Assembly (NCBI GenBank): GCA_049841135.1
Contig: JASGHK010000008.1
Location: 275,272 to 339,271 of the forward strand
From: Myxococcales bacterium
GTDB taxonomy: Bacteria; Myxococcota; Myxococcia; Myxococcales; UBA5297
Direction: 5' to 3'
DNA: 64,000 nt
The notes beneath the pieces are model-generated. The model did no database searches and was not told the origin of the DNA. It saw nothing but the letters and a program-made list of their open reading frames with translations. Below are positions 1 through 60,992 of the stretch, piece by piece. Numbering within the stretch: the stretch's first letter is position 1; each line of letters starts with the position of its first letter. The position numbers and the translations under genes were made by a program.

Positions 1-1047
1 TCTACACCTCCGACGAGCCGCCCAGCCGCCTGACCCCGGTCATCGAGGCCCTCAAGGCCGCCGGCGCGCGCGGCGTGCGGGTGCGGTTCCTGGTCGACGA
101 CTCCTTCTCGCTCAAGTACCCCAAGACCACCGACGCCCTCACCACCATCAAGGGCCTGCAGATGCGCAAGCTGGTCGGCGGCAAGCTCTTCGGCGGCATC
201 CTCCACGCCAAGTACTTCATCGTCGACCGCAAGGAGGGCTACCTGGGCAGCCAGAACTTCGACTGGCGCTCGCTGGAGCACATCCAGGAGATGGGCGTGC
301 GCATCAAGTCGCCGGAAGCTCTCGGCGGAGCTGCTGGACGTCTTCGAGACCGACTGGGAGCTCGCCGGCGGCGCCCCGAACGACCACCGCATCAAGCGCC
401 ACAAGCACTACGGCCCGGTGCGCATCGGCGACGACACCACCGCGACGCTCACCGCGAACCCCAAGGGCTGGCTGCCGGACGAGGCCAGCTGGGACCTTCC
501 GCAGATCATCGAGAAGATCGACCGTGCCCGGCAGAGCGTGGCGGTGCAGGTGCTGACCTACAAGCTCAAGGGCTACGGCGGCGACGAGTACAAGGGCCTG
601 GACGAGGCGCTGCGGCGGGCGGCCCAGCGCGGCGTGAAGGTGCGCCTGCTGGTCTCCGACTGGTCGAACAAGCAGGGCTCCGACGCGCGCCGGGACATCA
701 CCGAGCTGGCCAAGGTCCCGAACGTCGAGGTGCGGGTGATCACCATCCCGGCGTGGACGGGCGGGCCCATCCCGTTCGCGCGCGTGTGCCACTCCAAGAT
801 CATGGTGGTCGACGGCGAGGCGAGCTGGGTGGGGACGAGCAACTGGGAAGGCGACTACTTCTTCAAGAGCCGCAACGTCGGCATCATCATCGAGAGCCGC
901 CCCTTCACCGAGCGGCTCACGCGGGTCTTCGACGATTCGTGGGAGGCGCCCTACACCAAGGCGCCGCTGCCCATGCCGCCGGGCGAGAAGCCGGAGCGGG
1001 AGTGGAAGAAGACCGACTTCAAGGCCAACCCCGAGCCGACGTACTAG
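1..1047 (+). CDS. Phospholipase D / cardiolipin-synthase-like protein (two HKD motifs), 5'-partial. A +1 frameshift near 316 splits it across ORFs 75..1226 (frame 3) and 418..1047 (frame 1)
   Basis: Two HxK(x)4D(x)6G motifs: HAKYFIVDRKEGYLGSQNF (frame of 75..) and HSKIMVVDGEASWVGTSNW (frame of 418..). The reading frame switches at tcgccggaAgctctcggcgg; deleting one base restores SPELSAELLDVFETDW. The ORF continues off the window start. Confidence 0.75.
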
Positions 1048-1260
1048 CGCGCATCGGCGCCGCGAAGGGACGGCGCGGTCGAGTGGCGCCGTCGAGAGAC
1101 GGCGTCCCGCGTCTGAGCTGTAACCCCAGGCCCAGCCGCTCGTCTCTGTCGAGCCCGAAGCACCGAAGCGCTCTTTTCTCTCGAAGGGTGGTAGCCGCCG
1201 CAGCGCGTCATCAGCCGGGAGGATGACACTGCACTGGCTGCTGCTACAGTCCGGCACCTG

Positions 1261-3249
1261 ATGTCCGACCCGGTCTTCCAGAAGTTCGGCGTCTCCAGCC
1301 CTGACGAGGACAGCTTCCTCGCCACCTTGGGGCCGCACGTGGACCGCGACGGCCTCTTCGTCCCCAGCCCGAGCCCGCTGCCCGTCGGCACCCGCGTCAA
1401 CCTCGAGTTCGCGCTGCAGGACATGACCACCGTCCTGGCCTGCGAGGGCGAGGTGCTCCTCTCTCGCCGGCCCGGTGGAGCGGCGCGCCCGGGGATGCTC
1501 CTGCGCTTCACCTCCCTCTCCGAGGAGGACCGGGGCCGCGTCGAGCGCGCGCTGGCCACGCTGGACGGCACCCAGAACGCGCCCCTGCCCGGCTCGGCCA
1601 CGATGCCGGGCGAGCCCAGCGACCCGCTGCACCCGCCCGGGTCCGCCCGCCGCTCGCGGCCTTCGGGAGTGGACCTGTGCGTCGGCATCGACTTCGGAGC
1701 CACCTCGTGCCGGGCCGGCGTGCTGGTCGACCGGGGCGTGCGGGCGGTGGAGCTGGAGGGCCGCAGCCCGGTGCTCGCCAGCGCCGTCGCCGTGGACGAC
1801 CGCGGGCGGCTCATGCTCGGCGCCCGCGCCCGCGCGCAGCAGGCCGTCGACCCGCGCAGCGCCCTGGTCGGCTTCCGGCGGCTGCTGGGGCTGCGACCGG
1901 CCTCCGACCTCGCCCGCAAGTTCACCGCGCGGCTGCCCTTCGAGGTCTGCACCGACGCCTACGGCGACGCCGCGGTCCGGGTGCGCGGGCGGGTGATGAC
2001 CGTGGTCGAGACCGCGGCCTGCCTGCTCGCCGAGATCCGCAACCGCACCTCCAACGCGCTGGGGCAGCCCTTGCGTCACGCGGTCCTGAGCGCGCCGGCG
2101 GCGTTCTCGGAGCGCCAGCGCCAGGCGCTGAGGATGGCCGCGCACCTCGCGGGGTGGAAGGTGGACCACGTCGTCAGCGACCCGATCGCCGCCGCCGTGG
2201 CCTGGTGCCACCGGCGAGGATTGGGCTCGCGCCTGCTGCTGGTGTTCGACCTGGGCGGCAGCTCCTTCGCGGCGAGCCTGGTGCGGGTCACCGCCGACCA
2301 GCTCGAGGTCCTGGGCACCGACGGCGAGCCGCAGCTGGGCGGCGAGGCCTTCGACTGCCGGCTGGCGCGCTTCCTGGAGGACGGCTTCGAGAAGGCCCAC
2401 GGCGCCACCATCGACGACCCCCTCACCCGGCACCGCGTGCGCGACGCCGCCGAGGCCGCCAAGATCGCGCTGAGCCAGGAGGGAGAAGCGCGGGTCCACG
2501 TGCCCTGGGCGGCGGGCGACCTGCGCGGAGCGCCGCTGGACCTGGAGGCGACGGTCACGCGCGCGCAGCTCGACCCGCTCGTGGCCGACCTCGCCAGCCG
2601 GGCGGTGGTCGTGGCCCGCGCGCTCTGCCAGCGGTTCGGCGTGGGCGCCGCGCAGCTCGACGAGGTGATCCTGGTCGGCGGCCAGAGCCAGGCGCCGGTG
2701 GTGCGCCTCGCGCTGGAGGCCGCGTTCGGCGACAAGGTGGGCCGAGAGCTCTCACCGCTCGACGCCGTCTCCACCGGCGCCGCCATCGTCGGCTGGGCGC
2801 TGCGGCAGGAGCCCCGGCGGTCGGGGCCCGCGGCGACGGCGAGCCTGGCGCAGAGCCTGCACCTCGGTCTCTCGGAGCAGCGCTTCCACCGGGTGCTCGA
2901 GCGCGGGATGCCGCTCCCCTGCGAGCGCGCCTGCCAGGTCACGGTGGGGCCCGAGGGCATGGTGCGGCTGGGCGTCTGGGAGTTCGAGGGCACCCAGCCG
3001 ATGGATCGGGCCTACCTGGGCGCGCTGCACCTGCGCGCTCCGGTGGGCGAGAAGGTCGAGGCCGTCTTCTCGGTGTCGCGCAGCGGCGTGTTGACCGTGA
3101 CCGCGCGGACGGCGAAGGGCGGCGCGGCCTTCACCGCTGCGACGGCGAGCCTCACCGGGGAAGGCCGTCGCGAGCTCGAGGCGTCTGCGGCGCTGCCGGA
3201 GCCGACCGGGCGGGAGAAGGTCGACGCCAAGAGGTTGCTGGCGCGGTAG
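1261..3249 (+). CDS. PilZ-domain / Hsp70 (DnaK-like ATPase) fusion protein
   Basis: The N-terminal ~100 aa are PilZ-like (VPSPSPLPVGTRVNLEFAL...GMLLRFTSLSEEDRGRVERAL). Hsp70 motifs follow: VGIDFGATSCRAGV, VLSAPAAFSERQRQALRMAAHLAGWKVDHVVSDPIAAAVAW, LVFDLGGSSFAASLV, VILVGGQSQAPVV. Confidence 0.8.
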   Translation: MSDPVFQKFGVSSPDEDSFLATLGPHVDRDGLFVPSPSPLPVGTRVNLEFALQDMTTVLACEGEVLLSRRPGGAARPGMLLRFTSLSEEDRGRVERALATLDGTQNAPLPGSATMPGEPSDPLHPPGSARRSRPSGVDLCVGIDFGATSCRAGVLVDRGVRAVELEGRSPVLASAVAVDDRGRLMLGARARAQQAVDPRSALVGFRRLLGLRPASDLARKFTARLPFEVCTDAYGDAAVRVRGRVMTVVETAACLLAEIRNRTSNALGQPLRHAVLSAPAAFSERQRQALRMAAHLAGWKVDHVVSDPIAAAVAWCHRRGLGSRLLLVFDLGGSSFAASLVRVTADQLEVLGTDGEPQLGGEAFDCRLARFLEDGFEKAHGATIDDPLTRHRVRDAAEAAKIALSQEGEARVHVPWAAGDLRGAPLDLEATVTRAQLDPLVADLASRAVVVARALCQRFGVGAAQLDEVILVGGQSQAPVVRLALEAAFGDKVGRELSPLDAVSTGAAIVGWALRQEPRRSGPAATASLAQSLHLGLSEQRFHRVLERGMPLPCERACQVTVGPEGMVRLGVWEFEGTQPMDRAYLGALHLRAPVGEKVEAVFSVSRSGVLTVTARTAKGGAAFTAATASLTGEGRRELEASAALPEPTGREKVDAKRLLAR

Positions 3250-5467: not shown

Positions 5468-5583
5468 CGCTCATTTCCGCCAGCAAATTCCCACGGTTGC
5501 CTCGGGCCTCCGGGACAGGCCTCGGAGACAACTTCGCCTTCAATGTTCCGATAATTCTCAGGATTTCCGCCCTCGAGGTCCCC

Positions 5584-7073
5584 ATGTCCCGCCGACCGGC
5601 CCTGCTCGTCGTCAGCCTCGTCGCCGCCCTCCTTGGCCTTGCGTCCTGCGGCGAGAACCACCGGTCGGAAGCTCGGCGTCGATGCGGCACTGGTCGTTCA
5701 CGCCGACGCCGGCGCGCTCGGCGACGCATCGCTGCCTTCGTCACCCGACGCCAGCGCTCAGCCGGGAGTCGATGCCACTTCCGGCGAGCCGCTCGACGCC
5801 GCAGTCATCGTGACCCTCGATGCGGGCCATCCAGCTGCCGACGCAGCGACGCCCTCCGGCGCCGACGGGGGCCTCTGCCCCACCCCCGGTTCCGGCACGC
5901 TGGCCGATCCCTTCTGCATCCCCGCGGCGCCGCACACCGTCTTCACCGACCGCCGCTCGACCGCCGACTCGACCTCCAGCGTCATCGACCAGTATCCGCC
6001 GAGCGACGCGGACGAGACCGGCCCGGAGTTCTTCTACAAGTTCCACGTCGCGCAGCCGATGCGCTTCTCCGCCGAGGTGAAGGCCCCCGAGCCCTCGGGC
6101 GTGGACGTCGACGTGCACCTGCTCAGCTCGCTCAGCCCGCAGACGCTCATCGTGCGCAACGACAAGGCCGTCTACGCCACGCTGCAGCCCGGCGACTACT
6201 TCCTCTCGCTCGACAGCTACAAGGGCCTCAAGGGCAGCTACATCCTCGACGCCACCTTCCGGCCGGTCACCGTCCCGGACTCCGACACCTTCAACCACTG
6301 GATCCTGCAGGCAGTGACCGAGCTGTTCGCGGGCTACGGCCTCCAGGGCTACTCCGACGTGGCGCTCACCCACGACCTGACCTACGGGAGCAAGGGCACC
6401 GTCAGCGCGATGGCGCCGCCGCGGACGATGTGCGTCGCGGCGGTGATGGAGGTGCTGGTCACCGCCCTGCAGATCTACGCGCGCGACACCGGGGACCAGT
6501 CGGTCTTCGACTTCTTGCCCATCAAGAGCTGGCAGAGCCTGTCCGCGAGCAACATCCGCGCGCACCTCTGGGTCAACCCGGACCTCGCGGCGGGCGGGTC
6601 GGCGGACGCGGTGCGCCACTTCGGCCTGGGCATGACCGTGCCCTTCGAGGAGCTGACGCCGGGCTCGTTGCTCAACCTGAACCGCACCACCGGCACCGGC
6701 CACGCAGTCATCTTCCTGGCGTTCCTGGACGCCAGCGGCACCGAGTACACGCGCTGGAACTCGAACGTCATCGGCTTCAAGTACTTCTCGTCGCAGGGCG
6801 GCTACGACGCGGGCGCCGGCGGCTTCGACTACCGCTGGGCGGTCTTCTCGGACTACGGGACCCCGACGATGCCCGGCAAGCGCGACGCCAACATCATCTA
6901 CAGCACCAGCCAGAAGATCCTGAACACCGGCATCGTCTACGCGCCGTCGCGCTGGCTGCGCACCAGCTGGTCGAACCCGAGCGGCACGCGCGACTTCGAC
7001 GGCCCGGAAGCTCGAGAGCGTCTTCGACCCCGTCTACTTCGACGGCAAGACGATCGACGACGAGCTGCCCTAA
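5584..7073 (+). CDS. Lipoprotein with pre-peptidase C-terminal (PPC)-like domain and putative Cys/His hydrolase domain. Two +1 frameshifts (~5667 and ~7006) split it over three frames
   Basis: Lipobox signal MSRRPALLVVSLVAALLGLASCGEN (frame 1) continues as ...KLGVDAALVVHADAGALGDAS... in frame 2. The C-terminus continues in a third frame as ...KLESVFDPVYFDGKTIDDELP* (stop 7071-7073). Both junctions lie at cggaAGCTC. Confidence 0.6.
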
Positions 7074-7432
7074 CCCGCTAGGCCCGCACGTCGGTGGCGC
7101 GCAGCGGACACCGGAGTCGAAGGCTCAGCCATCGGCTCGGAGACGCCAGCCCCAGGTCTGCCAGCGAATCCAACAACAACCGGGTCCGGTGAGATCCTGC
7201 GCGCATCACGGACGTTGATTCTCTGCCTCGGCGGCCCTGGCCGAGCTGTCGAAGAAGGACGGCACCATCCTCCGGGTGACGCACGGCAAGTGACTCCACG
7301 GCCTGGCGATCGAGGCGCCGCCTCCTCGCCAAGGGTCCTTGGCCCGGCGGCTAGTGCTAGTCTTCGGGCCGTCGACGCCGCCCCGAGGCCCCGTGCTCAC
7401 GCCCCCCACCCAGCTCCGAGCCTGCTCGAGGT

Positions 7433-9007: not shown

Positions 9008-9027
9008 CGGTCGAGGAGTGACCAGCG

Positions 9028-10058
9028 ATGTTCCGACGTGAGCGTCTTGGCTGCGTGGCGCTGCTGTTCGCCGTCCTGTCCACCGGCAGCTCGGGCGGGA
9101 CCGCGCGTGCGGCCGAGCGTGCCGAGCCCGGCCGCGACCGGGCGAAGGCCCTGCTGCTGGAGGGCAATCGCCTGCTCGACGAAGGCCAGTACCTCGAGGC
9201 GCTCAAGCGTTTCGAGGAGGCCTATGCCGCGTTTCCCAGCCCGAAGCTGCAGTTCAACCTCGCGCAGACCCTGCGCGAGCTGGGCCGCGACCTCCAGGCG
9301 CTGGAGCACTACGAGCGCTTCCTCATCGAAGCCCGCGAGACCGACGCTCCCGGACTGTTCCAGGCGGCCCGGGCGCGGGTCGCCGAGCTGAAGGGCCGCA
9401 TCGCCACGGTGGAGCTTCTCCTTGGGCCCCGAGGGCGCCGAGCTCGACCGTCGACGCCGTGCCGGCGGGTCGCGCCCCGCTCACCGCGCCGCTGCGCTTG
9501 ATGGCCGGGCCGCACGTCCTGGTCGCCTCCAAGCCCGGCCACGAGAGGCAGGTCCTCGAGGTCGTGCTCCAGCCCGGGCAGCGCCTGGTCCAGCAGGTCT
9601 CGCTCGTCACCGAGGAGGAGGCGGCGGCGACCCGCAAGGCGGTCCAGGAGGCCGAGGCCCGCCGCGCGCAGGCGCAGGAGAAGCTGCTCGTCGCGCAGAA
9701 GGAGGCGCGCGTGCTCGAGGAGCGGCGGCAGCGAGGCCTGCGCACCGCGGGCTGGGCGGGCCTGGGGGTCGGCGTGGGAGCAGAGGCCGCCGCGCTCCTG
9801 CTGGTGGGCCTGTCGCGCGCCGAAGCCGGACAGGTCGAGGGCGCTCCTCGCGACACCCCTTGGAGCAGCGTCTCCAAAGCCCAGGCCCGGTCGGAGGACC
9901 TGCGGACCGCCAGCGTGGTCTGCGCCGTCTCGGGCGCGGCCTTGCTCCTCGCCGGCGGGATCCTGTGGGGCCTATCGGCGGGCGAGCAGCCCAAGGTCGA
10001 GCTCGCGCCGGCCGTGGGCCCCAAGGGCGCTGGCCTGACCGTGGCGGGGAGGTTCTGA
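9028..10058 (+). CDS. TPR-like / PEGA-domain membrane protein (frameshifted around 9435-9450)
   Basis: Signal peptide plus TPR-like helices (ORF 9028..9501), then a PEGA-like stretch VDAVPAGRAPLTAPLRLMAGPHVLVASKPGHE in ORF 9459..10058, a coiled coil and a TM segment. Two nearby indels are needed to join the two ORFs. Confidence 0.6.
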
Positions 10059-12727: not shown

Positions 12728-12849
12728 CGCGAGCCGCCACCATCGCTCGCGCCGTCCGGTCCCACCGAGAATCGTCTAGGCTTCCAGTGGGCCGGGGAAT
12801 CGGCGCGGGCATCATGCCCCGCCACGGTTTCGGTCACCGAGAGTGCACG

Positions 12850-14140
12850 ATGGTCATCGGCCGCCTACGCGACGCCCGGGTGCGTCTTCGCCTCGCGCCT
12901 GACCTCTGCGTGCTGGCCCTCGCGCTGAGCGTCCTCGGCTGCGGAAGGACCGCTCCGTTCAGCCCGCGCACGGCGACCGAGCCCCGACGCCTCCCAGGGG
13001 CCGGCCTGCACGTCGCTCGCGGACTGCGACGACGGGGACTGGTGCACCGTGGAGCGGTGCGACCCGGCGCTCGGCTGCGTCGAGTCTCCCAGGGCGTGCG
13101 ACGACGGCATCGCCTGTCACCGCAACGGCTGCGACCCTGGGACCCGCGCCTGCGTGCACACGCCGGACGACTCGCTCTGCCCCGATGGTCAGTGGTGCGG
13201 CGAAGCCGGCTGCATCGCGTGCCTCGCCGACGGCGACTGCGACGACGGCGCGCTCTGCACCGCGGACACCTGCCTCCCCGACGGCTCCTGCCAGCACTTG
13301 CCGGACGACCGCCTGTGCGGCGGCCATCCCTGGTGCGACGGGGACTACACCTGCGCCCCATTCCTCGGCTGCGTCGTGGGGCGGCCCAGAGACTGCGACG
13401 ACGGCATCGCTTGCGACCGCAACACCTGCGTCGAAGCCATCCGGAGCTGCACCCACACTCCCGACGACTCCGCCTGCCCTCCCACCCAGCTGTGCGGGCT
13501 CTCCGGCTGCGAGCCGTTCATCTACGCCCAGACTCCGGTCGCGCTCTACCAGGTGGAGCTTCCGTCGGGCCGCGTCCTCGAGGTTGGGGCGACGGGTCTC
13601 ATGGCCTTCGACCTTGCGTTCACGCCGTCGCGGGTCCTGTACGGCACCCAGGGCGAGCTCGTCTTCACGCTGGACCGCAAGACCGGCGTCCCGCTCTCGA
13701 TGTCTCCGCTCCTCCCGGTCTTCGAGGGGATGAATGCGCTGGGCAGTGCCAGTGACGGAAGCCTCTATGGCGCAGGCGGCAGCACGATCTACCTGATCGA
13801 CCCCGACTCCTGGACCGTGGCGACGGTCGCCCACCTGCCGTCTCAGTACTCGTCCAGCGGAGACCTGGCCTTCGTCGGCGACGCGCTCTTCACGACGGTC
13901 TACCGCCCGGGCAACTCCTCCGACGACCTGGCGCTGGTGGACCTCGCCGCGGGCACCGCGAAGATCGTGGGCCCTATCGGCTACTCCGACGTCTACGGCC
14001 TGGCTCCCTATGACGGCGAGCTCTACGGCTTTGCGCAAGGTGGCCAGATCCTGCGCATCGACATGGCGACCGGCGCCGGGTCGCTCATCGCCGAGACCCA
14101 GCTGCAGTTCTACGGCGCGGGGTCCCTTCCGGGCCGCTGA
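12850..14140 (+). CDS. Lipoprotein with Myxococcus cysteine-rich repeats and beta-propeller-like C-terminal domain (+1 frameshift ~12982)
   Basis: Signal MVIGRLRDARVRLRLAPDLCVLALALSVLGCG in frame 1 continues as ...ACTSLADCDDGDWCTVERCDPALGCV... in frame 2. The junction is at gagCCCCgac, probably a C-run insertion. Confidence 0.6.
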
Positions 14141-15087: not shown

Positions 15088-15859
15088 TCAGCTCCCGGCA
15101 GACGCGACCTGAGCCACGAAGCGAGCGAGCGCCTCCCAATACGTTTCCGATGCGGCGACGTCGTTGTGACCGCGGCCTGGGACGAGCACCAGTTCCTTCT
15201 TCTCCGCCCCGGCCGCTTCGTACGCCCGCTTCCCCTCGGTCGGCGAGATGGACTGATCCTGCTCGCCGTGAAGCACCAGCAGCGGGAGCCTGCCTCGCGC
15301 GAGCTTGGGCAAAGGATCGAAGGTTGCCTTTTCGGCGTCATCGAAGGAGTCAGGCGCCTCCAGACCTCGTCGCCGGATCAGCGCGGCCAGGTCCACGAAC
15401 CCGCTCTCGAAGACGACGGCGCGGACGGACGAGTCCAGGCTCGAGCCATACAGCTCCGCCGCACACGCCGAGCCGAGCGACCGCCCCATGACGATGATCG
15501 GCTTGCCGGCGGCCTTCGCCACGACTCCCGCCAGGACCGTCTGCGCGTCTTCGATCGCCAGGCGCAGCGTGGGCCTTCCCCGGCTCTCGCCGTACCCGCG
15601 GTAGTCGACGACCGCCAGGTCCACGCCCGCTTTCCGGAAGGACTCGGCCAGCGGGTCGTAGTCGGCCACCACCTCACCGTTGCCGTGGAAGAGCAGCAGC
15701 GTCGCCCGCGTGTCCGCACCGTGGTGCCAGCGCAGGTGCAGGCTCGCCCCAAGTACTTGGACCCGCAAGATCCTCCGCGCCCGCCGGTGCCTTGTGCACG
15801 AAGGGCCGGGGAAAGAAGAGCCGCTTGTTGAAGACGTCGCTGTCGAGGATGGAGGTCAT
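15088..15859 (-). CDS. Alpha/beta hydrolase (frameshift near 15775)
   Basis: The N-terminus MTSILDSDVFNKRLFFPRPFVHKAPAGAEDL is encoded in one frame (tail of ORF 15674..17965). The rest, RVQVLGASLHLRWHH...LLLFHGNGE...VMGRSLGSACAAEL, is in ORF 15088..15768. Nucleophile elbow GRSLG. Confidence 0.65.
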
Positions 15860-22893: not shown

Positions 22894-25457
<2,564 letters not shown>

Positions 25458-26773: not shown

Positions 26774-27707
26774 TGCGGGTCGTGCTCCTGAACGGGAGAT
26801 GGCTCCCACGTGCGCGGTGCTGGCGATCTCGGCGAAGGCCTTCTGCATCCCGGCGGCGCAGGCCTGCGCGACGGAACGGGTCTCGGCGAGGGCGAAGACG
26901 GTGGGGCCCGAGCCGGAGATGGTGCAACCGAGCGCGCCGGCCGCCAGTGCCGCGGCCTTGACGTCGGCGAAGTGAGGGATCAGGGCGGCGCGCCGCGGCT
27001 CGGCATAGCGGTCGTCGAGCGCGCGCCGGACGAGCGCGGCGTCCGAGGACGCGAATGCCCAGGCGAGCGAGGTGGTGTTGGCCATCTGCTGGACCCACTC
27101 GGCCTGCTCCCAGGCCTTGGGCAGCAGGGCCCGCGCCGCCTTGGTCTCCACGCGGACCGCCGGCGTCACCAGCGCCAGGTACCAGTCGGCAGGCACGGGG
27201 ATCTTCACGACGTCCTGCGGGTCCACCGACCGGACGATGGTCAGCCCGCCGAGCACGCAGGGCGCGATGTTGTCGAGGTGCCGGCCAGCCACCGCGGCCT
27301 CTCCCGCCAATGCCGCCTCGATGAGGACGTTCGGCTCGGGGGACTTGCCCGTCGCGGCCAAGTGGGCCGCCAGCGCCCCAGCCACCGAGCTCGCAGCGCT
27401 CCCGCCCAGGCCACCGGCGAGCGGCAGCCCCTTGTCGACCCACATGTGGAAGCGCTGGGAGACCGCGAGCTTGCCGAGCATGGCGCGCGCGGCGATGGCG
27501 GCAGCGTTCTTGCCGGCCTCCCGCGGCACCGAGCTCGGCGTCGCGCCCGGTGATCCCGTCCACCCGGTCCACTCCGTCGACTGCGTCCACCGCATCCACC
27601 AACTCCACCGTCACCCGGTCCCCGAGCCCCTCCACCGCGAGCCCGAGCACGTCGAACCCCGGGCCGACGTTCCCGATGCTGGCCGGTGCGAACGCCGTCG
27701 CCTTCAT
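26770..27707 (-). CDS. thrB: Homoserine kinase (frameshift near 27530)
   Basis: N-terminus MKATAFAPASIGNVGPGFDVLG (GHMP kinase start) lies in the ORF 25518..27707 frame. The rest, PLAGGLGGSAASSVAGALA...GSGPTVFAL, is in ORF 26771..27595. The junction is at gccGAGCTCggtgccg. Confidence 0.75.
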
Positions 27708-34182: not shown

Positions 34183-34948
34183 CTACGTCGGCGCCGCCTT
34201 GCTCCTCCGGGCGCGCGGCGCCGACGGCAGCTCCTTCGTCAGCTTCTCGCGGGACCACTCCGTCCAGGGACCGAGCACGGTCTCCGGCTGACCACGTGCG
34301 AGGGCCTCGTCCAGGGCCGTGCACATCGCGACGTACTCCGCGCACCAGGTTACCCGGGGCGCCAACGCGGCGAACTGCTCTTTGGCCTGGGCGAGGAACG
34401 GCCGCGCTTCGTCGCAGCGCGCGAGCCTGGCGAGACAGCAGGCGCGGTTGAAGAGCCGGTGGTCCTTCGAGAGGATCTCGTCCTGCTCAAACACTCCCAG
34501 CAACCCGGTGACGGTCGCGGTCTCCTCTAGCCAAGGCTTCACCTCCTGGGCGACGTACTGCTCGAATCGCACCGAAGATGCGCGCCAGTTCGGGCTCGGG
34601 CTTCACCAAAGGGACCGACCAGTGGTCGGTCGCCAGCCAGTGGCTCGACGGTCCGTAACACACCGTGGCCTCGACCGGGGCCTTGCCGTGCTGAGGCACG
34701 CCGAGCGTCCCTCCAGGAGAGAGAAAGATGTGGCCGGGCTTGGTGAACAGCGCGCTCGAGGCGTAGGTGACACCGAACGTGGTTCCCAAGAACCAATCTC
34801 CCCGCGTGTCGATCGCTACGATCTGGAGGATGTCCTCGCGCACGCGGGAGAGCTGCAATGGCCGTCCGGACTTGGCGAAGCCGAGCGGTCCGAGAAGGGA
34901 GAGGAGGCTCTCGCGCAGCGGCCGGAACGGCTTGATGGGAACGCTCAT
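34183..34948 (-). CDS. Hypothetical protein (frameshift near 34560 joining ORFs 34487..34948 and 34183..34572)
   Basis: ...SVPLVKPEPELARIF in one frame continues as (V)RFEQYVAQEVKPWLEETATV... in the next. Both halves have protein-like composition. Confidence 0.45.
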
Positions 34949-37566: not shown

Positions 37567-38321
37567 GTGGACAACCTCCCCGACAGGACCGGCAACGCGG
37601 CGGCGGCGCAGTGGGCCGCCAAGTTCTTCGCGCACTTCGCCGACCTCGCCGACGCTGCCGGCTACCCCCCGCTCATCGGCGCCATCCCCAGCGGCAAGCC
37701 GGCACTCTCGGGTGAGCTGGGCTCGGGCTCCGAGAACCTGTTCGAGCCCATCGCCACCGCGATGAAGGCCAAGAGCTACCGTTGGGGCTGGAGCTACCAC
37801 GCCTTCTCCACCTACCTCGCCCACGACAGCGTCCTCGAGGCCGCCACCACGCTGCGCTACCGGAGGATTGTCTCGGAGTGCGGATTGGAGCTGGTGCCGC
37901 TGGTCATCACCGCCACAGGCCAGGCCGGCGGCTGGCTCAACTCCAGCACGTCCGCGACCGCCTACCTCGAGTGGCTCGACTGGCTCGACGCGCAGCTCAA
38001 GCAGGACGGCGTGCCCGCGGCGCTCTTCCAGTTCGGGGACACGGCCTCCCAATACGAGCTGGCCGGCATCGCCGATGGCCTCGTCAACCTCCTCACGTCG
38101 ACCACCTCGCGAGACGCAGGCCTCGACGCCATCCCGGGTGCCCCCGCGACGGCGGCGTTGCCGTTCCCGCGGATGCCGCTTCGGGGAGCGAGGGACCTGG
38201 TTCGCACGGGGGGCACGGCATCCCGGTCGAGAACCAGAGCTGCTCCGCCGCGGGCGCGGGCTCGGGCACTGCGCTCTTCGCCCTGGCGGCGGGCTTCCTG
38301 CTCCTGCGCCGACGCCGCTGA
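37567..38321 (+). CDS. Hypothetical protein ending in a MYXO-CTERM-like tail (frameshift ~38170; start uncertain)
   Basis: Frame 1 reads ...YRWGWSYHAFSTYLAHDSVLEAATTLRY...LEWLDWLDAQLKQDG...APATAALPFP. Frame 3 then reads ADAASGSEGPGSHGGHGIPVENQSCSAAGAGSGTALFALAAGFLLLRRRR*. No in-frame ATG or signal peptide was found after the egtB stop. Confidence 0.45.
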
Positions 38322-42492: not shown

Positions 42493-44074
42493 ATGGCCAA
42501 GCCCAAGCCCGACGCGCCGCAGACCCTGCGCCAAGCCGCCGCCTCGCTCGCGGTCGAGCCCGACGGCAGCTTCTTCTTCGCCTGCGGCCCCGGCGCCTAC
42601 CTCAACGGCAGCTGGAACGGCTTCGGCCGCTTCGACGCCGCCTCGGGGAAGGTCGCCAAGGTCGAGGCGCCGTTCAGCGGCCCCATCGCGCACCTCGGCG
42701 GCGACGTGGTCGGCCTGGAGCGCAAGTACGAGAAGGACCACTTCGTCTACGTGCTCAAGCGCGCCGACCGCATCAGCGGCGCCGTCCAGGCCGTCTTCGA
42801 GCCGCTGGAGCTCGAGGTCCAGGGCCTCGCGCCGAGCCCCAACGGCGGCTGGATCGCGGCGGTCGGGAAGGGCGAGGTCGCCGTCTTCGATCCCTCGGGC
42901 AAGAAGGTCGAGTCGCGCAAGGCCCAGGCGGCGTGCTTTACCGGGCCCGATGAGCTCCTCTACGCCACCTTCGCCACGACCGCGCGCCGCGACCTCGCCA
43001 CAGGCCGCGAGACTCCGGTGGACATCAAGGACAAGGTCTCGCTCCACGGCGTGCTGCGCCCGCGCGATGGCTGGGTGCTCTCGCCCCGAGGCGAGGTCCT
43101 CGAGCTGTCCACCGGCAGGGCGCGAGGCTCGGCCGCGGGACGTACTGCTGGGGCGTCGAGCCCGGGACCGTGGTGCGCTCCACGTTCGAGGGGATGGTCG
43201 AGGTGCTCGAGCTCGACGGCAAGGTCCTGCACTCGTTCGCGCGGCCGCGGGGCCGGGACATCCTCCAGGCCTGGACCGCCGCCGGCTGGTACGTGCTCAC
43301 CACCGGCACCTTCATCGAGCGCTACCCGCTGGCCAGAGCGGACTCGCTCCCGAAAGAGCGCGCCGAGCGCAAGCTCCCGTCCGCCCGCAAGCCGGTGACC
43401 TCCGAGGCCGACCAGGACGCCCGCGCCGCCCAGCTCCTCCAGGCCTACTTCGACCGCCCCGACGACCCCTCGCTCCTCGCCGTCTGGGCCGACGTCCTCG
43501 CCGAGCACGGCGATCCCCGCGGCGAGTTCATCCAGCTCCACCTGATCGGCCAGCAGGCGACGCCCGGCGGCTCGAGGTCCTGCGCGCCAACGGCGGCGGC
43601 AAGATGGTCGGACCGGCCCGGGAGTTTCTGCGCTCCTGGCGCTTCGGGGAGAATGGCCTCGTCGAGCACGCGACCTGCGAGGCCCAGAAGCTCGCCGAGG
43701 GCTTCGCGGCCATCGCGATGCTCAGCCCGCAGCTCTCGCTGCAGGTCACCTCGCTGCGCAAGAGGACCAAGGCCACCGTCCCCTTGCTCGCCAAGCTCCC
43801 GCTCGGCCGCGTCCCCACCCTCCACTTCAGCTCCAACTTGATGACCGACGCCGTCCTCGCGCAGCTCGCGCCCGCGTTCTCGGGCGTGCGCAGCCTCTCG
43901 CTCGAGTACAACGAGCTCACCGCGGACGGCCTGCTGAAGGCGCTGCCCCACCTGAAGAGCGTCAAGGAGCTCCAAATCGACCGGCCCCTGGCGAACGACC
44001 GCTCGGTCCGCGAGGCCCTCCTCGAGCAGCTTCCGGCTCTCGAGCTCCTCAACCAGGAGAAGGTGCGCGGCTGA
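42493..44074 (+). CDS. TIGR02996-type repeat-companion domain plus leucine-rich-repeat protein. Two frameshifts (~43130 and ~43570) spread it over three frames
   Basis: The segment QLLQAYFDRPDDPSLLAVWADVLAEHGDPRGEFIQLHL resembles the repeat-companion domain (..ADWLEE.GDP.R.EFI.L). C-terminal LRRs read LSLEYNELTADGLLKALPHLKSVKELQID. The three pieces are ORF 42202..43398 (from MAKPKP), ORF 43170..43841 and the tail of ORF 42950..44074. Confidence 0.6.
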
Positions 44075-48250: not shown

Positions 48251-48465
48251 CCTTGGCGATGGGGCGGGGATCGAGCCAGGCAGGGCCGGCAACTTGGGCC
48301 ACGTGGCCCAAGTAGGTGCCGTGGACCAAGTAGTCCCGGGCCGCCGGGGCCTTTGCTACACGCTCGGAGCCCGGATTGACCGCCTAGGCCTGCCGCGGCG
48401 ACCGATGCTCCCGGCAGGTGCTGGAGGACGACCTCCAGCTCAATCTCGACCTTTCCCAAGGTCCC

Positions 48466-51400: not shown

Positions 51401-51570
51401 ACGGCAGCGAGCCCGGGCGCCTTGGCCAGGATCATCACCTGCGTGTTGGTGACGTCCGGGAAGGCGTCGATGGGAAGGCGGGTCCAGGCGACGTAGCCGG
51501 CGATGACGAGGACGCCGGTCGCGAGCAACACGAGGAACCGAGTCTCGAGCAACCACGTGAAGAATTTCAT
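48466..51570 (-). CDS. czcA: CzcA/CusA-family heavy-metal efflux RND permease
   Basis: 1034 aa from MKFFTWLLETRFLVLL. 12-TM RND architecture with two large periplasmic loops and the conserved DASIVVVEN motif. Confidence 0.85.
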   Translation of the reverse strand: MKFFTWLLETRFLVLLATGVLVIAGYVAWTRLPIDAFPDVTNTQVMILAKAPGLAAVDVEQRVSYPIEQVMRGLPKVTSVRSLSKAGLSQAVIVFEDGSETYWTRQVVFERLAQARESLPPGVEPELGPISTGLGEIFQYTLESEKVDPTELRTIQDWIVSPLLKPIPGVNEINSFGGYVKQYQVLLQPDKLLKYGLTVAQVVESIERNNANAGGGVVVRGWEQMYLRGVGLLRDIPDIERIVLKAKDGAPVYLRDVADVVVGSEPRQGAVTRDGKGEAVAGMVIMLKGENSKDVVSRVKAAVERTKSTLPEGTRISVFYDRTSLIEACIKTVVDALLEGGIFVILVLFLFLAELRTALIVVFSLPLTFLVSFIVMGQVGLSSNLMSLGGLAFSVGMVVDASIVVVENVRRHLAEHRDKEQKRHVVATAVAEVARPVGFSVVIIAIILVPLFTLQGIEGKMFAPLALTMLIALLVSLVVALTVVPALSELVLRQVPEKEFFFIRRLHQGYLRLLGGTVRHPRITLAASVATLVAAGALTPLIGTEFMPPLDEGSLAINVVRLPNAALDGSVKVADYMEKQLRKFPEVDTVVSKTGRAEISEDPMGPEQTDVFIMLKPRKQWGTGRDKAELTKAIQEELAQIPGLRYSFSQPIALRVNELISGVKSDLAVKVFGPDLEVLKQFADRGAAVLMGVRGAQDVKVEQISGMTQFDAEIDREAVARYGINVSDVNDTIETAIAGREASTLIEGQRRFAVVVRFPEAARADIPEIERLLIAAPKGERVPLGQLAKVSMVEAPAQVSRENGMRRVVVECNVRGRDLGSFVEDVQAGLAPIQKELPSGYFIELGGQFENQQRAMRQLEIVVPIALLLILVLLYLALGSVGHSLLVLLNLPFALVGGVIAVVLFRMPLSVSAAVAFIVLLGIAVQNGVVLVAFFRQLRERGESVSETVRKGCELRFRPLLMTALTSFIGHLPMLYATGSGADIQKPLAVVVMGGLITSTALTLLVLPTLYAVLAGRAERRALAVAAEGPPSNA

Positions 51571-51581
51571 GGTGGCTCCCT

Positions 51582-52967: not shown

Positions 52968-54209
52968 CGCGTTTCTCCCAGAAGGAGCTGAAGCCGACTG
53001 CAGTCGAGTTGGGTTTGGAGAAGGGCAGCGAGGTGCTCGCGGCGCGCTTCGCCGAGCACCCGCCGTGAGTCGAGAACGTCGAGGAGCGTCGTCTCGCCTA
53101 TCTGGAAAGAGCGCTCGAGCATGCTGGCGGCCTTCTCGGCGCGGGGCAGGATTCTGCTCCTGGTACCGGGCCGCCGCCTGCTGCCCCTGCGCGCACGAGG
53201 TACGCGCCTCGGTCGCGCTGGCGAGCAGGTCGCGAGTCTGCGCGTCGAGCCGGTGGGACTCGGCCCGTCGCGTCGCCTCGGCCTGCTCGATGCGGCCCGT
53301 GTTCCAGTTCCAGACCGGCAGGGTCACGCCGATCCCGCCGCCGAAGCTCTGGCGATCGAGCTCGTTGGTGAAGAAGCCCTTGATGGAGAAGGCGGGGATG
53401 CGCTGGCGGCGCTCGGCGGTGATCTCCGCGTCGAGCGCGCGCGCGCGGGCCCTGGAGGCGTCGAGCGAAGGGTGGCTCTCGCGAATGGCAGCCATCGCGG
53501 CCTCCAGGTCCGGCACCTTCGGTAGGGCCTCCAGCGCAGCGGGGTCGACCGTCCAGTCCTTCTCGGCGAGTCCCTGGATCCAGAGCTGCAGCTGGCCCCG
53601 GTGAGACTGGAGCTGCGACCGAGCGGCTGCGAGCTCGTTGCGCACGCGCTCGAGCTCCGTCTCGACCCGAGGCACCTCGATGGGCCGCGCCTCGCCCTTC
53701 TCCACGCGGAGCCCGACGAGCTTGGCGACCTCGGTGGCCTGGGCCTCGAGCGCCTGGAGGGATTCGACCCGGGCCTGGTCGAAGGCGGCGTTCCAGAAGA
53801 GGGTGCCCAGCTGCCCAAGGACGTCACGGCGGAGGGCACGAGCCTCGGCCTTGGCTTCTTCCAAGGTCGCTTGGGCTGCGTCGACGCGGGGGCCCCGCTC
53901 GGCCAGCCACTCGAGCGGAACCGTCAGCTCGAAGGCCTGCTCGAACCTGTCCGGGCCGGGGCCCTCCCGTGGGGCGCCGCGCCCGAGCGCCACGTCGAGC
54001 GAGGGGTTGGGGATGGCGCCGGCGGCTGCGATGCCTGCTTGTGCGGCGGCAGCGCGGGCATCCGCCTCACGAAGCCGCGGGTGTTCGTCGACGAGGCGGA
54101 CGACGTCCGCCCAGGAGAGGGGCTGCGACTGTGCGACTGCAGGCGCGGCGGCAAGAGTGACTGCCGCGCCCGCCAAGAGCGCGCGAGCGCTCGGCAGAAC
54201 GTGACCCAC
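52964..54209 (-). CDS. czcC: Outer-membrane efflux protein (TolC/CzcC family), +1 frameshift near 53150
   Basis: The N-terminal ~350 aa in the ORF 51582..54209 frame have OEP-family coiled-coil repeats, up to ...AARYQEQ. The C-terminus AEKAASMLERSFQIGETTLLDVLDSRRVLGEARREHLAALLQTQLDCSRLQLLLGETR* is in the next frame. The junction is at gcCCCCgcg. Confidence 0.7.
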
Positions 54210-54305
54210 GGGGGGCCTCCAGCATGTCCAAGAGGGCGACGCGCGAGGCGATCGCTGCCCGAGGGGCAGCGGTCCGCTTCGCCGCGCGAGAGCAGTGAGC
54301 GATCG

Positions 54306-54623
54306 CTAGGCTGCGCTCTTGGGGACGTGCCGGAGAGGCTTCGGCTCAGGGGAGGCCGGGACGAGGACATCCTCGGCGTGGTGCCGTTCGGCGGGAAGCT
54401 CGAGTCTTGCGACCTTCAGCTGCACCGCGCCTGGGCGAGACGGCGCGTGGCAGGCACACCAGCAAGTGGGCGGGCAGTGGCCTGTCTCGTCGTCGTTGGG
54501 GCAGCTCTCGAAACACTCGATCTGCATCGTCGACGCGACGGCGGCCGTCACCTGGACCCCGCTGAGGAGGCAAATGGCCAGCAGAGGGATGTAGCGCCGG
54601 ACACGTCGCATTGCGGCTTGCAT
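54306..54623 (-). CDS. Small secreted Cys/His-rich protein immediately upstream of czcC
   Basis: Signal MRRVRRYIPLLAICLLSGVQVTAAVAS, then CFESCPNDDETGHCPPTCWCACHAP. Co-oriented with the czc genes, 97 bp upstream. Confidence 0.5.
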   Translation of the reverse strand: MQAAMRRVRRYIPLLAICLLSGVQVTAAVASTMQIECFESCPNDDETGHCPPTCWCACHAPSRPGAVQLKVARLELPAERHHAEDVLVPASPEPKPLRHVPKSAA

Positions 54624-54773
54624 AACACGCGAGTTGTGCTGGCGCCAACCCGCAGAAGTGGGGGGTGGGCGGGCGCACCGCGGCTGAGAACGGTGCTGCG
54701 CGGGCCTGCTCCCCGAGCGCGAGCGGCCTTGCTTGCTGCCCGCTCAGGTGGCCTGGGCTAGACTGCGCGCCCC

Positions 54774-55883
54774 ATGGTCGAGGCCACCGCCCGAAAGCGA
54801 CTGGGGTTCGTCGACGCCGCGCGCACGCTGGCGATGGCGCTGATGGTGCAGGGTCACGTCTGCGACAACCTGCTCTCCCCCGAGGGCAAGGCCGGCTGGC
54901 TCTATCAGCACCACCTGGTCCTTCGCGGGATGACCGGCCCGCTCTTCTTCTTCGTCTCCGGCTTCGCCTTCGTCGTCGCCAGCAACCCTGCCTGGGAGGA
55001 GTACGGGCGTCCCGGACGGCGCCTCTGGGCCCGGCTCAAGCGGGTGGCGACGCTGCTCGCGGTCGGCTGGTTCCTGCAGGTGCCGCGGTGGAGCGGCCCG
55101 GCCTTCAGCCACGCCGAGTGGCGCTACGTCTTCCGCTGCGGCGTGCTGCACGCCATCGCCATCGCGCTCGTGGTGGCGCTCGTCCTCATCGCCGCCACCC
55201 GGACCCGCCGCGCGTTCACCGCCGCCGCCTTCACCATCGCCGTGCTCTCGGTGGTGGTCGGCCACCTCGCCTCGTCGGCGCCGATCCTCCCCGAGGCCGC
55301 CGGGCTGTTCCTGCGCACGCAGGAGGGCTCGCTCTTCCCGGCCACACCATGGATGGCGCACTTCCTCCTGGGGGCGGTCCTGGCGCGGCTGCACCTCGAC
55401 GTGCCCTGGCTCTCGTCCACCAAGCGCCTGGCGCTCTTCGTCGGAAGTGCCGGGGCGATCCTCCTCTCGACCGGGAGGGTCTGGCAGGCGTTCTCGCCGG
55501 TGGACACCGACAACCTCGCCGTCTGGGTCTCGGACCCCGAGGTCTTCCTCGCGCGGGCGGGCATGGCCTGGTGCGCGTTCGGTGCCTTCGCGCTGCTGCT
55601 GGACGGGCTGCAGTCGCGGGCCTGGCTGCAGGCGGTGGCCTCGCACGCGCTGAGCATCTACGTGGTCCACCTGGTCGCGCTCTACGGCTGGCCGGGGATG
55701 GACGGGCTGGTGCAGCGCTTCGGCCCGACGCTCGGCGTGGGCCCGACCTATCTCACCGGACCGCTGCTCTTCGCCGGCTGCGCGCTCTTCGTGGTGGCCC
55801 TCTTCGCAGCCGTCTCGTTCGTCCAGCGCCAGGGGCGCAGCGCGCTGGGACGCCTGTTCCCGGCCGCCGGGGCGCCGTCCTGA
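54774..55883 (+). CDS. Acyltransferase-like polytopic membrane protein (DUF1624 / heparan-alpha-glucosaminide N-acetyltransferase-like)
   Basis: N-terminal RLGFVDAARTLAMALMVQGHV, then about 9 TM segments and the conserved LSIYVVHLV. 369 aa. Confidence 0.6.
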   Translation: MVEATARKRLGFVDAARTLAMALMVQGHVCDNLLSPEGKAGWLYQHHLVLRGMTGPLFFFVSGFAFVVASNPAWEEYGRPGRRLWARLKRVATLLAVGWFLQVPRWSGPAFSHAEWRYVFRCGVLHAIAIALVVALVLIAATRTRRAFTAAAFTIAVLSVVVGHLASSAPILPEAAGLFLRTQEGSLFPATPWMAHFLLGAVLARLHLDVPWLSSTKRLALFVGSAGAILLSTGRVWQAFSPVDTDNLAVWVSDPEVFLARAGMAWCAFGAFALLLDGLQSRAWLQAVASHALSIYVVHLVALYGWPGMDGLVQRFGPTLGVGPTYLTGPLLFAGCALFVVALFAAVSFVQRQGRSALGRLFPAAGAPS

Positions 55884-57112
55884 GCCCGCTCGAGCTCGTC
55901 CGCGAGGCGCTGGCGGCCATCTTCGAGCAGGGCCGCGAAGCCGACCGCGTCCTCGACCGCACCCTGCGCCAGCACCGCGAGCTGTCGAGCGCCGACCGGG
56001 CTGCGGTCGCCCGCCGGGTGCTGGGCATCGCTTGCTTGCGCGGCCGGTTGGACTACCGCCTCGACACGGCCTGCCCAGGATGGCGCGACAACGACCCCTT
56101 TGCGTTCCGAATCGCCGCCTACGTCGCGCTCGAGGAGGGCGCCGGCCTGCAGAGCGCCGGCGCGGCCTCGGGGCTGGCCGACGAGCGAATCGCTGGTCTT
56201 GCGGCCCCTGCGAGCTGGCCTGAGGACCCAATCGACCGGCTCGCCTGCGAGCACTCCCTCCCCCGCTGGCTCGCGGAGCGCTGGCACCGCGAGTCGGTCC
56301 GGAGGCGGCCGCCGCCCTCGCCTCCTGCGTCAACCGGCCGGGCCCCGTCGTCCTGCGCACCAACACGCTCCGCACCGACCGCGAGGGCCTGCTGCGCGCG
56401 CTCGCCGGCGAGGGCATCGCGGCGCGGGCCACGACGCTCTCGCCGCTCGGCGTGAGGATCGAGGGCCGCGCCAACCTCTTCGGCTCGCGAGCGTGGCAAG
56501 ACGGGTTGTTCGAAGTGCAAGACGAGGGCAGCCAGGCGATCGCGCTCGCGGTGGATGCCTGCCCCGGTGAACGGTGCCTCGACTTCTGCGCCGGCGCCGG
56601 CGGCAAGACGCTCGCGCTCGCGGCGGCGATGGGCAACCGGGGCGAGCCTCCTGGCGACCGATGTCGACCCCCAGCGTCTGATCAACCTCGCCGCCCGGGC
56701 CCGGCGCGCCGGCGTCGAGATCGTCCGCACGCGCCGAGTCGACGCTGACCTTCCCCTTCCCGACCTGGGCCTCGCCGACCGCGTCCTCGTCGATGCCCCG
56801 TGCTCGTCGCTGGGGTCGCTGCGCCGCAGCCCGGACCTGCGCTGGCGGCTGCGGCCTGAGGAGATAGCCCCGTTCGCGCGCACCCAGCTGGAGATCCTCG
56901 GGCGCGCGGCCACCTGCGTCCGACCCGGCGGGCTGCTGGTCTACGCGACGTGCACGCTCACCCCCGAGGAGAACGAGGGCGTCGCGGCGGACTTCCTTCT
57001 CCAACACGAGGGCTGGCGACCCGAGCCACTGACCGACGCCGGACCGCTTCGGCTCTGGCCGCACGTCCACGGCACCGACGGGTTCTTCGCCTGCGCCTGG
57101 CGCGCACGTTGA
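55883..57112 (+). CDS. RsmB/Sun-family 16S rRNA m5C methyltransferase. Two frameshifts (~56290 and ~56650) spread it over three frames; start unresolved
   Basis: NusB-like N-terminus ELVREALAAIFEQGREADRVLDRTLRQ in the ORF 54665..56455 frame. SAM-binding DFCAGAGGKTLALAAAM in ORF 56452..56748. Catalytic LVDAPCSSLGSLRRSPDLRWR...LLVYATCTLTPEENEG in ORF 56555..57112. Confidence 0.65.
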
Positions 57113-59516: not shown

Positions 59517-59532
59517 CGGAGGAACGCACGTC

Positions 59533-60992
59533 ATGCGCCTGAACCTGAATACCAAGATCAACGACCTCATCACCCAGCACCCGTTCCTGCTCGACTACCT
59601 CGTCAGCTACGCGCCGGAGTTCGAGAAGCTCAAGAGCCCCATCGCCCGCGCGACCATCGGCCGTATCGCCACCATCACCATGGCCGCGAAGCTGGCCAAG
59701 CTCGACCCGGCCAAGCTGCTCAACGACGTCGCCGCCGCCATCGAGAAGAGCACCGGCCAGGCGCCGCAGCTGGGCGAGCCCGAGCCGGCGACGCCGGAGC
59801 AGCTCAAGCAGCGCCGCGAGGCCCTGGCCGCCATCGTCCGCGAGCTGCACGAGGGCAAGTCGCCCGCGGAGCTCGAAGGGCCGCTTCGACCTGCTGCTCG
59901 GGGACGTCGGCCCCGCGGAGATCGGCAAGCTGGAGAACGAGCTGCATCGCCTCTGGCGTGCCGGTGGCCGAGGTGCGGCGCCTGTGCGAGCTGCACGTGG
60001 ACGTGTTCCGCGAGGGCCTCCAGCAGCAGCCCACCGTGTCCACGCCCGCCGGCCACCCGGTCCACACCTTCATGGCCGAGAACCGGATGTTCGAGCGCGT
60101 GGCCACCGCGCTGACCGAGGAGCTGCGCGTCGTCGGCAGCGACCCGGCGAGCCTGGGCAAGCGCCGCGACGGCCTGCTCGCCCAGCTCGAGCAGCTGGGG
60201 GCGGGGCTGGAGAGGCACTACGTGCGCAAGGAGAACCTGCTCTTCCCGCTCATCGAGAAGGCCGGCGTCAGCGGCCCGCCGCAGGTGATGTGGGGCGTGC
60301 AGGACGACATCCGCGCGCTGCGCAAGTCGACGGTGGCCGCGGCCAAGGCCGGCGACGCCGCGACGGTCGCCCGCGACGGGGCGGCTTTCGCCGAGGGCGT
60401 GACTGGCATGGTCTTCAAGGAGGAGGCGATCCTCTTCCCGCTCTGCCTGGACCTCTTCTCCGAAGCCGACTGGAAGGGCATTCGCGCGGCCGAGGGCGAG
60501 GTGGGCTATGCCTTCTCGGTGACCCCGGGCGCCGACTGGGCTCCGGGCGAGTCGAGCACCTCGGAGGAGACGCCGCGCACGCTGGGGCGCCTGCCGCTGG
60601 ACACCGGCCTGCTCTCGCTCGAGCAGGTGAACCTGATGCTCAACCACCTGCCGCTGGACCTCTCCTTCGTCGACGAGGAGGACAAGGTCCGCTACTTCAC
60701 CCAGGGCAAGGAGCGCATCTTCCCGCGCAGCCCGCAGGTCATCGGCCGCGCCGTGCAGAACTGCCACCCGCCGCACAGCGTGCACGTCGTCAACCGCATC
60801 CTCGAGGCGTTCCGCAAGGGCGAGAAGGACGACGCCGAGTTCTGGATCGAGATGAAGGGCCGCTTCCTGCACATCCGCTACTTCGCGGTCCGCGACGCCA
60901 AGAAGCAGTACAAGGGCTGCCTCGAGGTCACGCAGGACGTCACCCACATCCGCGCGCTGGAAGGACAGCGCCGGCTGCTCGACTGGAATTGA
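59533..60992 (+). CDS. DUF1858 / hemerythrin-like / DUF438 (PAS-like) three-domain protein. Two frameshifts (~59885 and ~59950) spread it over three frames
   Basis: DUF1858 N-terminus MRLNLNTKINDLITQHPFLLDYLVSYAPEFEKLKSPIARATIGRIATI. After ...GKSPAEL the frame shifts at gcgGAGCTCgaagggccgcttcgac (KGRFDLLLGDVGPAEIGKLENEL), then again into ORF 59958..60992, which carries the hemerythrin motifs and the DUF438 C-terminus. Confidence 0.65.

Follow-up and report, generated by a model that had tools for sequence, protein, structure and literature searches.

In nanopore sequencing, DNA modifications for which basecalling models were not trained are a documented source of assembly error. About 70% of nanopore consensus errors were located in Dcm motifs when untrained models were used (PMC6591954), and untrained modifications at specific pentamers reduced the quality of nanopore assemblies (PMC10687267). 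Part of the copies of a motif are affected, errors may lie up to a few bases away from it, and GATC is among the motifs reported (PMC12392509). The hexamer GAGCTC is a documented target of an m5C Type II methyltransferase, M.Sgr13350I, and was found de novo in metagenome-assembled genomes (MAGs) from soil and compost (PMC11954522). Here, we describe a window of 64 kb, meaning the whole stretch of DNA that was analyzed, from contig JASGHK010000008.1 of a Myxococcales MAG (GCA_049841135.1). In this window, 13 genes are interrupted by a total of 19 single-base frame breaks, 15 of which are extra bases and four missing ones, and most of them lie in or beside GAGCTC. It is very probable that these breaks are consensus errors of a long-read metagenome assembly, caused by modified motifs, and that they do not exist in the DNA of the organism.

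At the G+C content of the window, 71%, spurious open reading frames (ORFs) are long; gene rebuilding by longest ORF therefore fails, and plain ORF lists are equally unsuitable. Frame breaks were detected by using a codon-usage model trained on long, confident genes of the window in combination with a seven-state Viterbi segmentation (three plus frames, three minus frames, and non-coding). This revealed 15 same-strand, gapless frame switches at 313/314, 7005/6, 9420/1, 15770/1, 24053/4, 24318/9, 27528/9, 34565/6, 43114/5, 43569/70, 53151/2, 56299/300, 56645/6, 59873/4, and 59943/4. The switch at 9420 represents two +1 events located 30 nt apart. The PEGA motif of this gene is readable in the intermediate frame only and scores 26.4 bits with two insertions, whereas a single deletion instead yields 17.1 bits, which is under the cut-off. 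Three-frame translation added three further breaks. At 5667 and 12982, a signal peptide and lipobox are encoded in one frame and the mature lipoprotein in the next, and at approximately 38170 a C-terminal sorting tail (a hydrophobic stretch followed by RRRR) sits in a different frame. Frame changes at 10041, 15905, 19168, 26796, 27734, 37522, 51582, 55868, 59512, and 61460 are ordinary gene boundaries.

The extra bases were placed at 316, 5669, 7008, 9417 (alternatively 9427-9430), 9446, 12982-12985, 15766-15768, 24059 (alternatively 24054-24056), 24320, 27530, 34566, 53153, 56647/8, 59875, and 59945, and the missing bases at 38146-38186, 43104-43118, approximately 43569, and 56293/4. An earlier reading of the same letters, hereafter the original prediction, had listed 19 breaks. 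All of its positions proved to be real according to the codon model, Pfam, and relatives, with displacements of 0 to 15 nt.

When the 19 one-base edits were introduced and the Viterbi segmentation was rerun, each gene became one uninterrupted coding segment. Pfam searches showed that successive fragments belong to one and the same domain, as seen for PLDc_2, Methyltr_RsmB-F, and DUF438, and that full-length domains appear after repair only. The DUF438 match was extended from profile positions 41-66 of 67 (24.4 bits) to 2-66 (67.5 bits), and the second copy of OEP from a partial match to 1-187 of 187. Similarly, Methyltr_RsmB-F changed from 37-195 to 5-197 of 199, and RsmF-B_ferredox from 17-71 to 2-70 of 74. 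The PLDc_2 match ended at profile position 117 of 132, at the break, and the repaired protein scored 136.5 bits. Codon bias and homology persist in full upstream and downstream of every break, and in-frame stops are absent.

The nearest genomes found are Myxococcales MAGs, foremost SMAG_U4749 (GCA_036504155.1), which shares 84 to 93% DNA identity with the window across common genes. Eight breaks could be aligned base by base to independent assemblies of relatives (L006, L027, L118, L119, and L122). In this comparison, which the original prediction had proposed, the relative was in frame at all eight alignable sites. At 7008, the window reads CCGGAAGCTCGAG and L006 reads CCCG-AGCTCGAG; at 27530, CACCGAGCTC is aligned to GAC-GAGCCC of L027, and at 53153, GGATTCTG to GGA-TCTG of the Logan contig L118. 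The window contains one T more than L119 at 15766, just past GATC in gene orientation, where L119 has one base fewer. The remaining four breaks were aligned to L122: GAG-TCGG against GAGCTGGG at 56294, GAGCCTCC against GAG-ATCC at 56647 (an isolated gap), GAGCTCGAAG against GAGCTC-AAG at 59875, and GAGCTGCATC against GAGCTG-ATC (then GCC) at 59945, the last two being within a stretch 93% identical to L122. Relatives carry an intact GAGCTC at 7008 and 59875 and an intact, plain GATC at 53153 and 59945. Throughout the approximately 27 kb that were aligned to SMAG_U4749, the listed breaks were the only isolated gaps within genes whose length is not a multiple of three. Relatives of the DUF438 protein retrieved by a metagenome scan were at most 62% identical and usable at the protein level only.

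To avoid circularity, the association with GAGCTC was evaluated blind to the motif. A credible interval was derived for each switch from codon likelihood alone, and an interval was considered to fit a palindrome if a one-base edit of the right sign restored the palindrome or directly flanked an intact copy. GAGCTC fitted 13 of the 19 intervals (14 if 24059, which is 3 nt off, is counted), whereas on average 1.84, and never more than 7, of the randomly placed intervals fitted it in 1,000 trials. None of 18 other control palindromes was enriched in the same interval test. At the base level, removal of the extra base restores GAGCTC for six insertions, namely, GA[A]GCTC (four times), GAGCT[T]C (once), and GAGC[C]TC (once), where brackets enclose the extra or, for deletions, the missing base. 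Four further insertions (9446, 24320, 27530, and 59875) directly adjoin an intact GAGCTC, as had been claimed originally for four junctions. Given that 0.37% of coding positions would restore and 0.19% would flank GAGCTC, at least 10 of 15 insertions correspond to a binomial P value of approximately 8e-20. Two of the four deletions are also best placed within the hexamer, GAG[C]TC at 56293, which is backed by a relative, and G[A]GCTC at 43569, which derives from codon likelihood only. Overall, about 12 of approximately 60 ancestral GAGCTC sites, or about 20%, are affected.

The original prediction had further noted that three junctions share the context cggaAGCTC, in which deletion of an A restores GAGCTC, and that a fourth reads gagaAGCTC. 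Both statements hold: each of the three CGGAAGCTC 9-mers (313, 5666, and 7005) present in the window coincides with a break, and so does GAGAAGCTC at 24056. The remaining 14 copies of GAAGCTC either encode Lys-Leu or Ser-Phe in frame, in ordinary codons, or are located outside called genes. A broader motif, GRGCYC, which would accommodate GAGCCC[C] at 12985 and GGGCCC[C] at 9430, was considered and rejected, with at most two events at such sites compared with about 12 at approximately 60 GAGCTC sites. We also observed an in-frame GAG CTT C.. with the rare CTT codon at 13556 and 31307; it resembles GAGCT[T]C and occurs without a frame break. No isolated gap is found near 31307 in the alignment to the relative, and both occurrences appear to be natural.

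The four GA[A]GCTC insertions are all on the forward strand. The first (315..321, with the extra base at 316 or 317) interrupts a two-domain PLD-like gene at 3-1047 (likelihood interval, 307-316), and the second (5668..5674; interval, 5655-5669) separates the signal peptide and lipobox in frame 0 from the mature part in frame 1 of a lipoprotein gene at about 5578-7081. The third (7007..7013), supported by blastn against L006, lies in the 3' end region of the same gene, and the fourth (24058..24064) in a Ser/Thr kinase-TPR gene at 22894-25457, for which the GGG run at 24054-24056 is an alternative placement equally supported by codon likelihood. A second extra base in the kinase-TPR gene follows an intact hexamer, GAGCTC[T] at 24314..24320 on the forward strand, with a tight interval of 24318-24321. 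The TPR-PEGA gene (9028-10058, forward strand) contains GAGCT[T]C at 9412..9418, for which the CCCC run at 9427-9430 is a less likely alternative (codon likelihood of 11.2 versus 8.3), and GAGCTC[G] at 9440..9446, which is supported by an interval of 9442-9450 and by the PEGA scores. In thrB, the homoserine kinase gene at 26797-27734 on the reverse strand, the extra base reads [C]GAGCTC on the plus strand (27530..27536; GAGCTC[G] in gene orientation); the GHMP kinase domains recognized by Pfam sit in the downstream fragment, and the gene lies between intact thrA and thrC.

The rsmB gene (approximately 55880-57109, forward strand) combines a deletion, GAG[C]TC at 56291..56295, with an insertion, GAGC[C]TC at 56644..56650. 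Both are supported by the alignment to L122, in which the latter appears as an isolated gap, and by repair of the Pfam domains. The gene for the DUF1858-DUF438-hemerythrin-PAS_10 protein (59533-60992, forward strand) carries GAGCTC[G] at 59869..59875, and tblastn with homologues shifts frame at 59875-59877. A gene at 42476-44071 (forward strand) is affected by two deletions. For the one at 43104..43118 (Viterbi switch at 43114/5), the candidates ACCGG|CAGG and GAGCT[C]G have equal likelihoods, and for the one at 43569..43573 (Viterbi switch at 43569/70), the best fit is G[A]GCTC, with addition of an A giving the top codon likelihood of 14.6 versus 12.8 to 14.2.

Repair of the lipoprotein gene at 5578-7081 yields a product with one distant database relative, P0001, a protein of 1,209 amino acids annotated as N-acetylmuramoyl-L-alanine amidase, with which it shares 47% identity across about 390 residues. 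The lipoprotein itself contains no Pfam domain.

GATC, a classic methylation site, is likely a second error context, secondary to GAGCTC, as judged from the placement of a few breaks. Overall, about three to five events can be linked to it. In the czcC/OEP gene (52970-54203, reverse strand), the plus strand reads GAT[T]C at 53150..53154 (GA[A]TC in gene orientation), and five homologues have Ile (ATC) at the break codon. The second break of the DUF438 gene is G[C]ATC at 59944..59948 on the forward strand, where the relative has GATC. Two further insertions may be assigned to GATC. One is GA[A]TC on the plus strand at 34564..34568 in a gene of unknown function on the reverse strand (34183-34987); its base placement at 34566 is tentative and derives from codon likelihood only, the likeliest switch being after 34567 within an interval of 34563-34576. 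The other is an extra T at 15766..15772, 1 to 3 nt past GATC (GATCT[T]G, reverse strand), in the 5' end region of an alpha/beta hydrolase gene at 15088-15860, where homologues reading GAEDL..V.V fix the protein register. A possible GATC deletion, GAT[C], lies near 38174. Restoration of GATC by at least two of the five insertions that are not linked to GAGCTC has a P value of approximately 5e-4 at the base level. This suggests a second modified palindrome besides GAGCTC.

In the gene at 37525-38376 (forward strand), the deletion is placed no more closely than 38146..38186. It may lie in the C5 run at 38146-38150 or in GAT[C]G at 38172-38175, two candidates with close likelihoods; tblastn with the 371-amino-acid protein of the relative shifts frame between 38136 and 38145 or later. 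This gene, whose reading frame (37523-38376) begins straight after the stop codon of the preceding FGE-sulfatase/DinB gene, also lacks about 103 N-terminal codons, with the signal peptide and start codon, as well as the intergenic spacer, all of which are found in SMAG_U4749. Approximately 362 nt of the relative (compare L122 474-835) have no counterpart here. The arrangement could stem from an assembly collapse or from a real deletion, in which case the 5' truncation of the gene would be genuine.

According to the original prediction, the breaks not covered by its GAGCTC junctions fall in C or G homopolymer runs. This was upheld for a small part only: at most three to four of the 19 breaks can be placed in runs of three or more identical bases, and what had been read as homopolymer cases are mostly motif cases. 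The supposed ccGGGGcg site is GAGC[C]TC at 56647, the breaks at 53153, 59945, 34566, and 15766 lie at or beside GATC, which had been overlooked, and those at 56293 and probably 43569 are deletions within GAGCTC. Four of the 19 events are deletions.

These placements also bear on the possibility that the breaks are generic long-read homopolymer errors or low-coverage consensus errors, to which motif and modification are irrelevant. We regard this as improbable, with a small residual chance. Some placements in short runs are compatible with it, namely, CCCC at 12982-12985 (GAGCCC[C], 12979..12985, forward strand; interval, 12974-12986), which separates the signal peptide and lipobox of a lipoprotein encoded at about 12850-14140 from its Cys-rich mature part, and possibly CCCC at 9427-9430, GGG at 24054-24056, and C5 at 38146-38150. 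In addition, many insertions copy the neighbouring base. However, errors of this type would change runs of at least three bases and increase in rate with run length, and the breaks do not follow this pattern. None of the 18 runs of six or more bases (six to seven) carries a break, at most 3 of 555 C or G runs of four or more bases do so, and the relative rules out a break in the GGGG run proposed at 56640. Several inserted bases differ from their neighbours, as in GAGCTC[G]AAG and G[C]ATC, and extreme enrichment is seen for GAGCTC and is absent for the other control palindromes.

The observations are therefore best explained by motif-linked consensus errors. The breaks are disabling, yet they occur without any other sign of decay, with no stops and with codon bias and homology unchanged. 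Their targets include rsmB and a thrB flanked by intact thrA and thrC. They run in both directions and occupy several positions in and beside one hexamer. Relatives are in frame at all alignable breaks, and the source MAG contains a contig of megabase size (1,652,613 bp) and therefore is probably a long-read assembly. The original prediction had proposed that the breaks reflect systematic error in sequencing or basecalling at GAGCTC, and the concentration at the motif, the in-frame relatives, and the 1.65-Mb contig of the MAG all argue for this proposal. We hypothesize that GAGCTC, and probably GATC, would carry a DNA modification in the source bacterium. The resulting distortion of the raw signal would extend across the motif plus one or two flanking bases, so that the basecaller or polisher may miscount bases at some copies of the motif, on both strands, and the consensus would retain the error.

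It should be noted that several points weigh against this explanation. No DNA methyltransferase is encoded in the 64-kb window. We infer the platform (nanopore), the modification, and the stage that generated the errors. Modification-linked nanopore errors have been published mainly as substitutions (mismatches) and not as indels (PMC10687267), unlike the breaks described here, which are indels biased to insertion. The association with GATC rests on few base-level placements, and in the loose interval test GATC, with 254 copies, fitted 8 intervals compared with 5.5 expected, which is not significant (P = 0.11). Finally, a non-motif placement is also possible for 9417, 24059, 43104-43118, and 38146-38186. 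The substitution-dominated reports do not contradict the indels found here, because frame analysis detects indels only and substitutions are invisible to it. GAGCTC sites common to the window and its relatives, which would serve as a comparison for substitution-type errors, are few.

A polishing or strain-mixture artefact, in which the consensus combines co-assembled strains with differing indels, is very improbable. The source is a MAG, and a MAG consensus can indeed be chimeric, but mixing of strains would yield indels in multiples of three and substitutions in coding DNA, not single-base indels at one hexamer.

We consider it extremely improbable that the indels are real, that is, that many genes have recently become pseudogenes with GAGCTC (and GATC) as in vivo hot spots for +1 and -1 changes, for example, by SacI-type nicking and error-prone repair. 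The deposited sequence does contain these bases, annotators accepted them, and a site-specific lesion could in principle account for motif specificity. If true, the window would record a very recent wave of gene inactivation targeted to the motifs in an uncultured myxobacterial population. However, essential genes are among the targets, and 13 unrelated genes, including thrB and rsmB, are affected without any other lesion, with no stops and with undiminished codon bias on both sides of the breaks. The original prediction, arguing from the density and context dependence of the breaks, had also rejected 13 real pseudogenes. Neither multiple kinds of lesion nor a relaxed coding signal downstream was found, and one or two edits restore each gene. 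The changes comprise both +1 and -1 events at varied positions within the motif or next to it, they extend to GATC, an unrelated second motif, and no frame break is seen in relatives at the aligned sites. Moreover, 19 disabling mutations within 64 kb would not become fixed in a consensus that represents an environmental population. Programmed recoding, i.e., ribosomal frameshifting or transcriptional slippage that is read through in vivo, can be dismissed as having next to no probability: each break needs just +1 or -1 for a full protein, but both directions occur, slippery heptamers and A/T runs are absent, the sites are not conserved, orthologues in relatives are single-frame, and an Rfam search of the window detected no frameshift element and no other RNA family.

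The gene content of the window is of the Myxococcota type. It encodes an Hsp70-like protein, a peptidase S15, Ser/Thr kinases, the thrA-thrB-thrC operon, efflux genes of the czcCBA type, RsmB, a sigma-54 activator, and the DUF1858-DUF438-hemerythrin-PAS protein. The syntenic contigs of SMAG_U4749 lack any equivalent of four blocks (7073-15898, 21515-25524, 39460-44530, and 48185-54731), which look like lineage-specific insertions or losses. These blocks comprise 10 of the 19 breaks and include genes for a kinase, the TPR-PEGA protein, two large lipoproteins, RibD_C, and the hydrolase, as well as the kinase-TPR gene, the gene at 42476-44071, and the czcCBA efflux operon. A stretch of 1.26 kb with 66 to 74% G+C (34935-36194), located between the gene of unknown function and the FGE-sulfatase gene, showed no coding signal in the codon model, no Pfam match for its six ORFs, and no Rfam match. 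Further broken genes or RNAs were sought in this and other low-coding stretches (41085-41754 and 7066-7589, among others), which likewise gave no coding signal and no Pfam or Rfam match.

The affected genes are almost certainly intact in the organism, and the breaks are almost certainly an artefact without biological significance. Their consequences for annotation are tangible. In this part of a public MAG, about one gene in four is wrongly annotated, appearing as a truncated or split gene. The deposited annotation holds a truncated product of the broken hydrolase gene, MGC4122179.1 ("MAG: alpha/beta fold hydrolase [Myxococcales bacterium]"), with 226 amino acids encoded at 15088-15768 on the reverse strand from an internal TTG start; it is identical to one protein fragment of the window (P0002). 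Frameshift errors of this kind have therefore already entered public protein databases. The error pattern can be used as a fingerprint, predicting GAGCTC (perhaps also GATC) modification in the source bacterium. It also points to a failure mode beyond the reach of homopolymer-aware polishing, in which a modified hexamer gives rise to single-base indels and not only to substitutions. Such errors would be repaired by polishing that is motif-aware or based on homology.

Programmed frameshifts, such as the +1 shift of prfB, the -1 shift of dnaX, or those of IS3 transposases, resemble the breaks in that one shift restores the full-length product. They differ in having a slippery site or stimulator and conservation in orthologues, neither of which is found here, where 13 unrelated genes in 64 kb are concerned. 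Decaying genomes, such as those of Mycobacterium leprae and recent endosymbionts, contain many genes that are interrupted by small indels, as is the case in the window. In contrast, the interrupted genes described here have no stops and no large deletions, keep their codon bias, are hit in a motif-specific manner, and are in frame in relatives. Homopolymer errors of long-read and flow-based sequencing also split genes by single-base indels, and several of the insertions lengthen one copy of a base to two or three copies to four, whereas long runs are spared and most events are located at GAGCTC or GATC. The closest likeness is to Oxford Nanopore methylation-motif errors at Dcm CCWGG, GATC, and GCWGC, among other motifs (PMC6591954, PMC10687267, and PMC12392509), which recur at a short palindrome, affect a fraction of its copies, lie in the motif or 1 to 2 bases off, and survive into the consensus; GAGCTC itself is methylated elsewhere (PMC11954522). 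Unlike those, mostly published as substitutions, the errors visible in this window, for which we infer platform and modification, are indels only and mostly +1.

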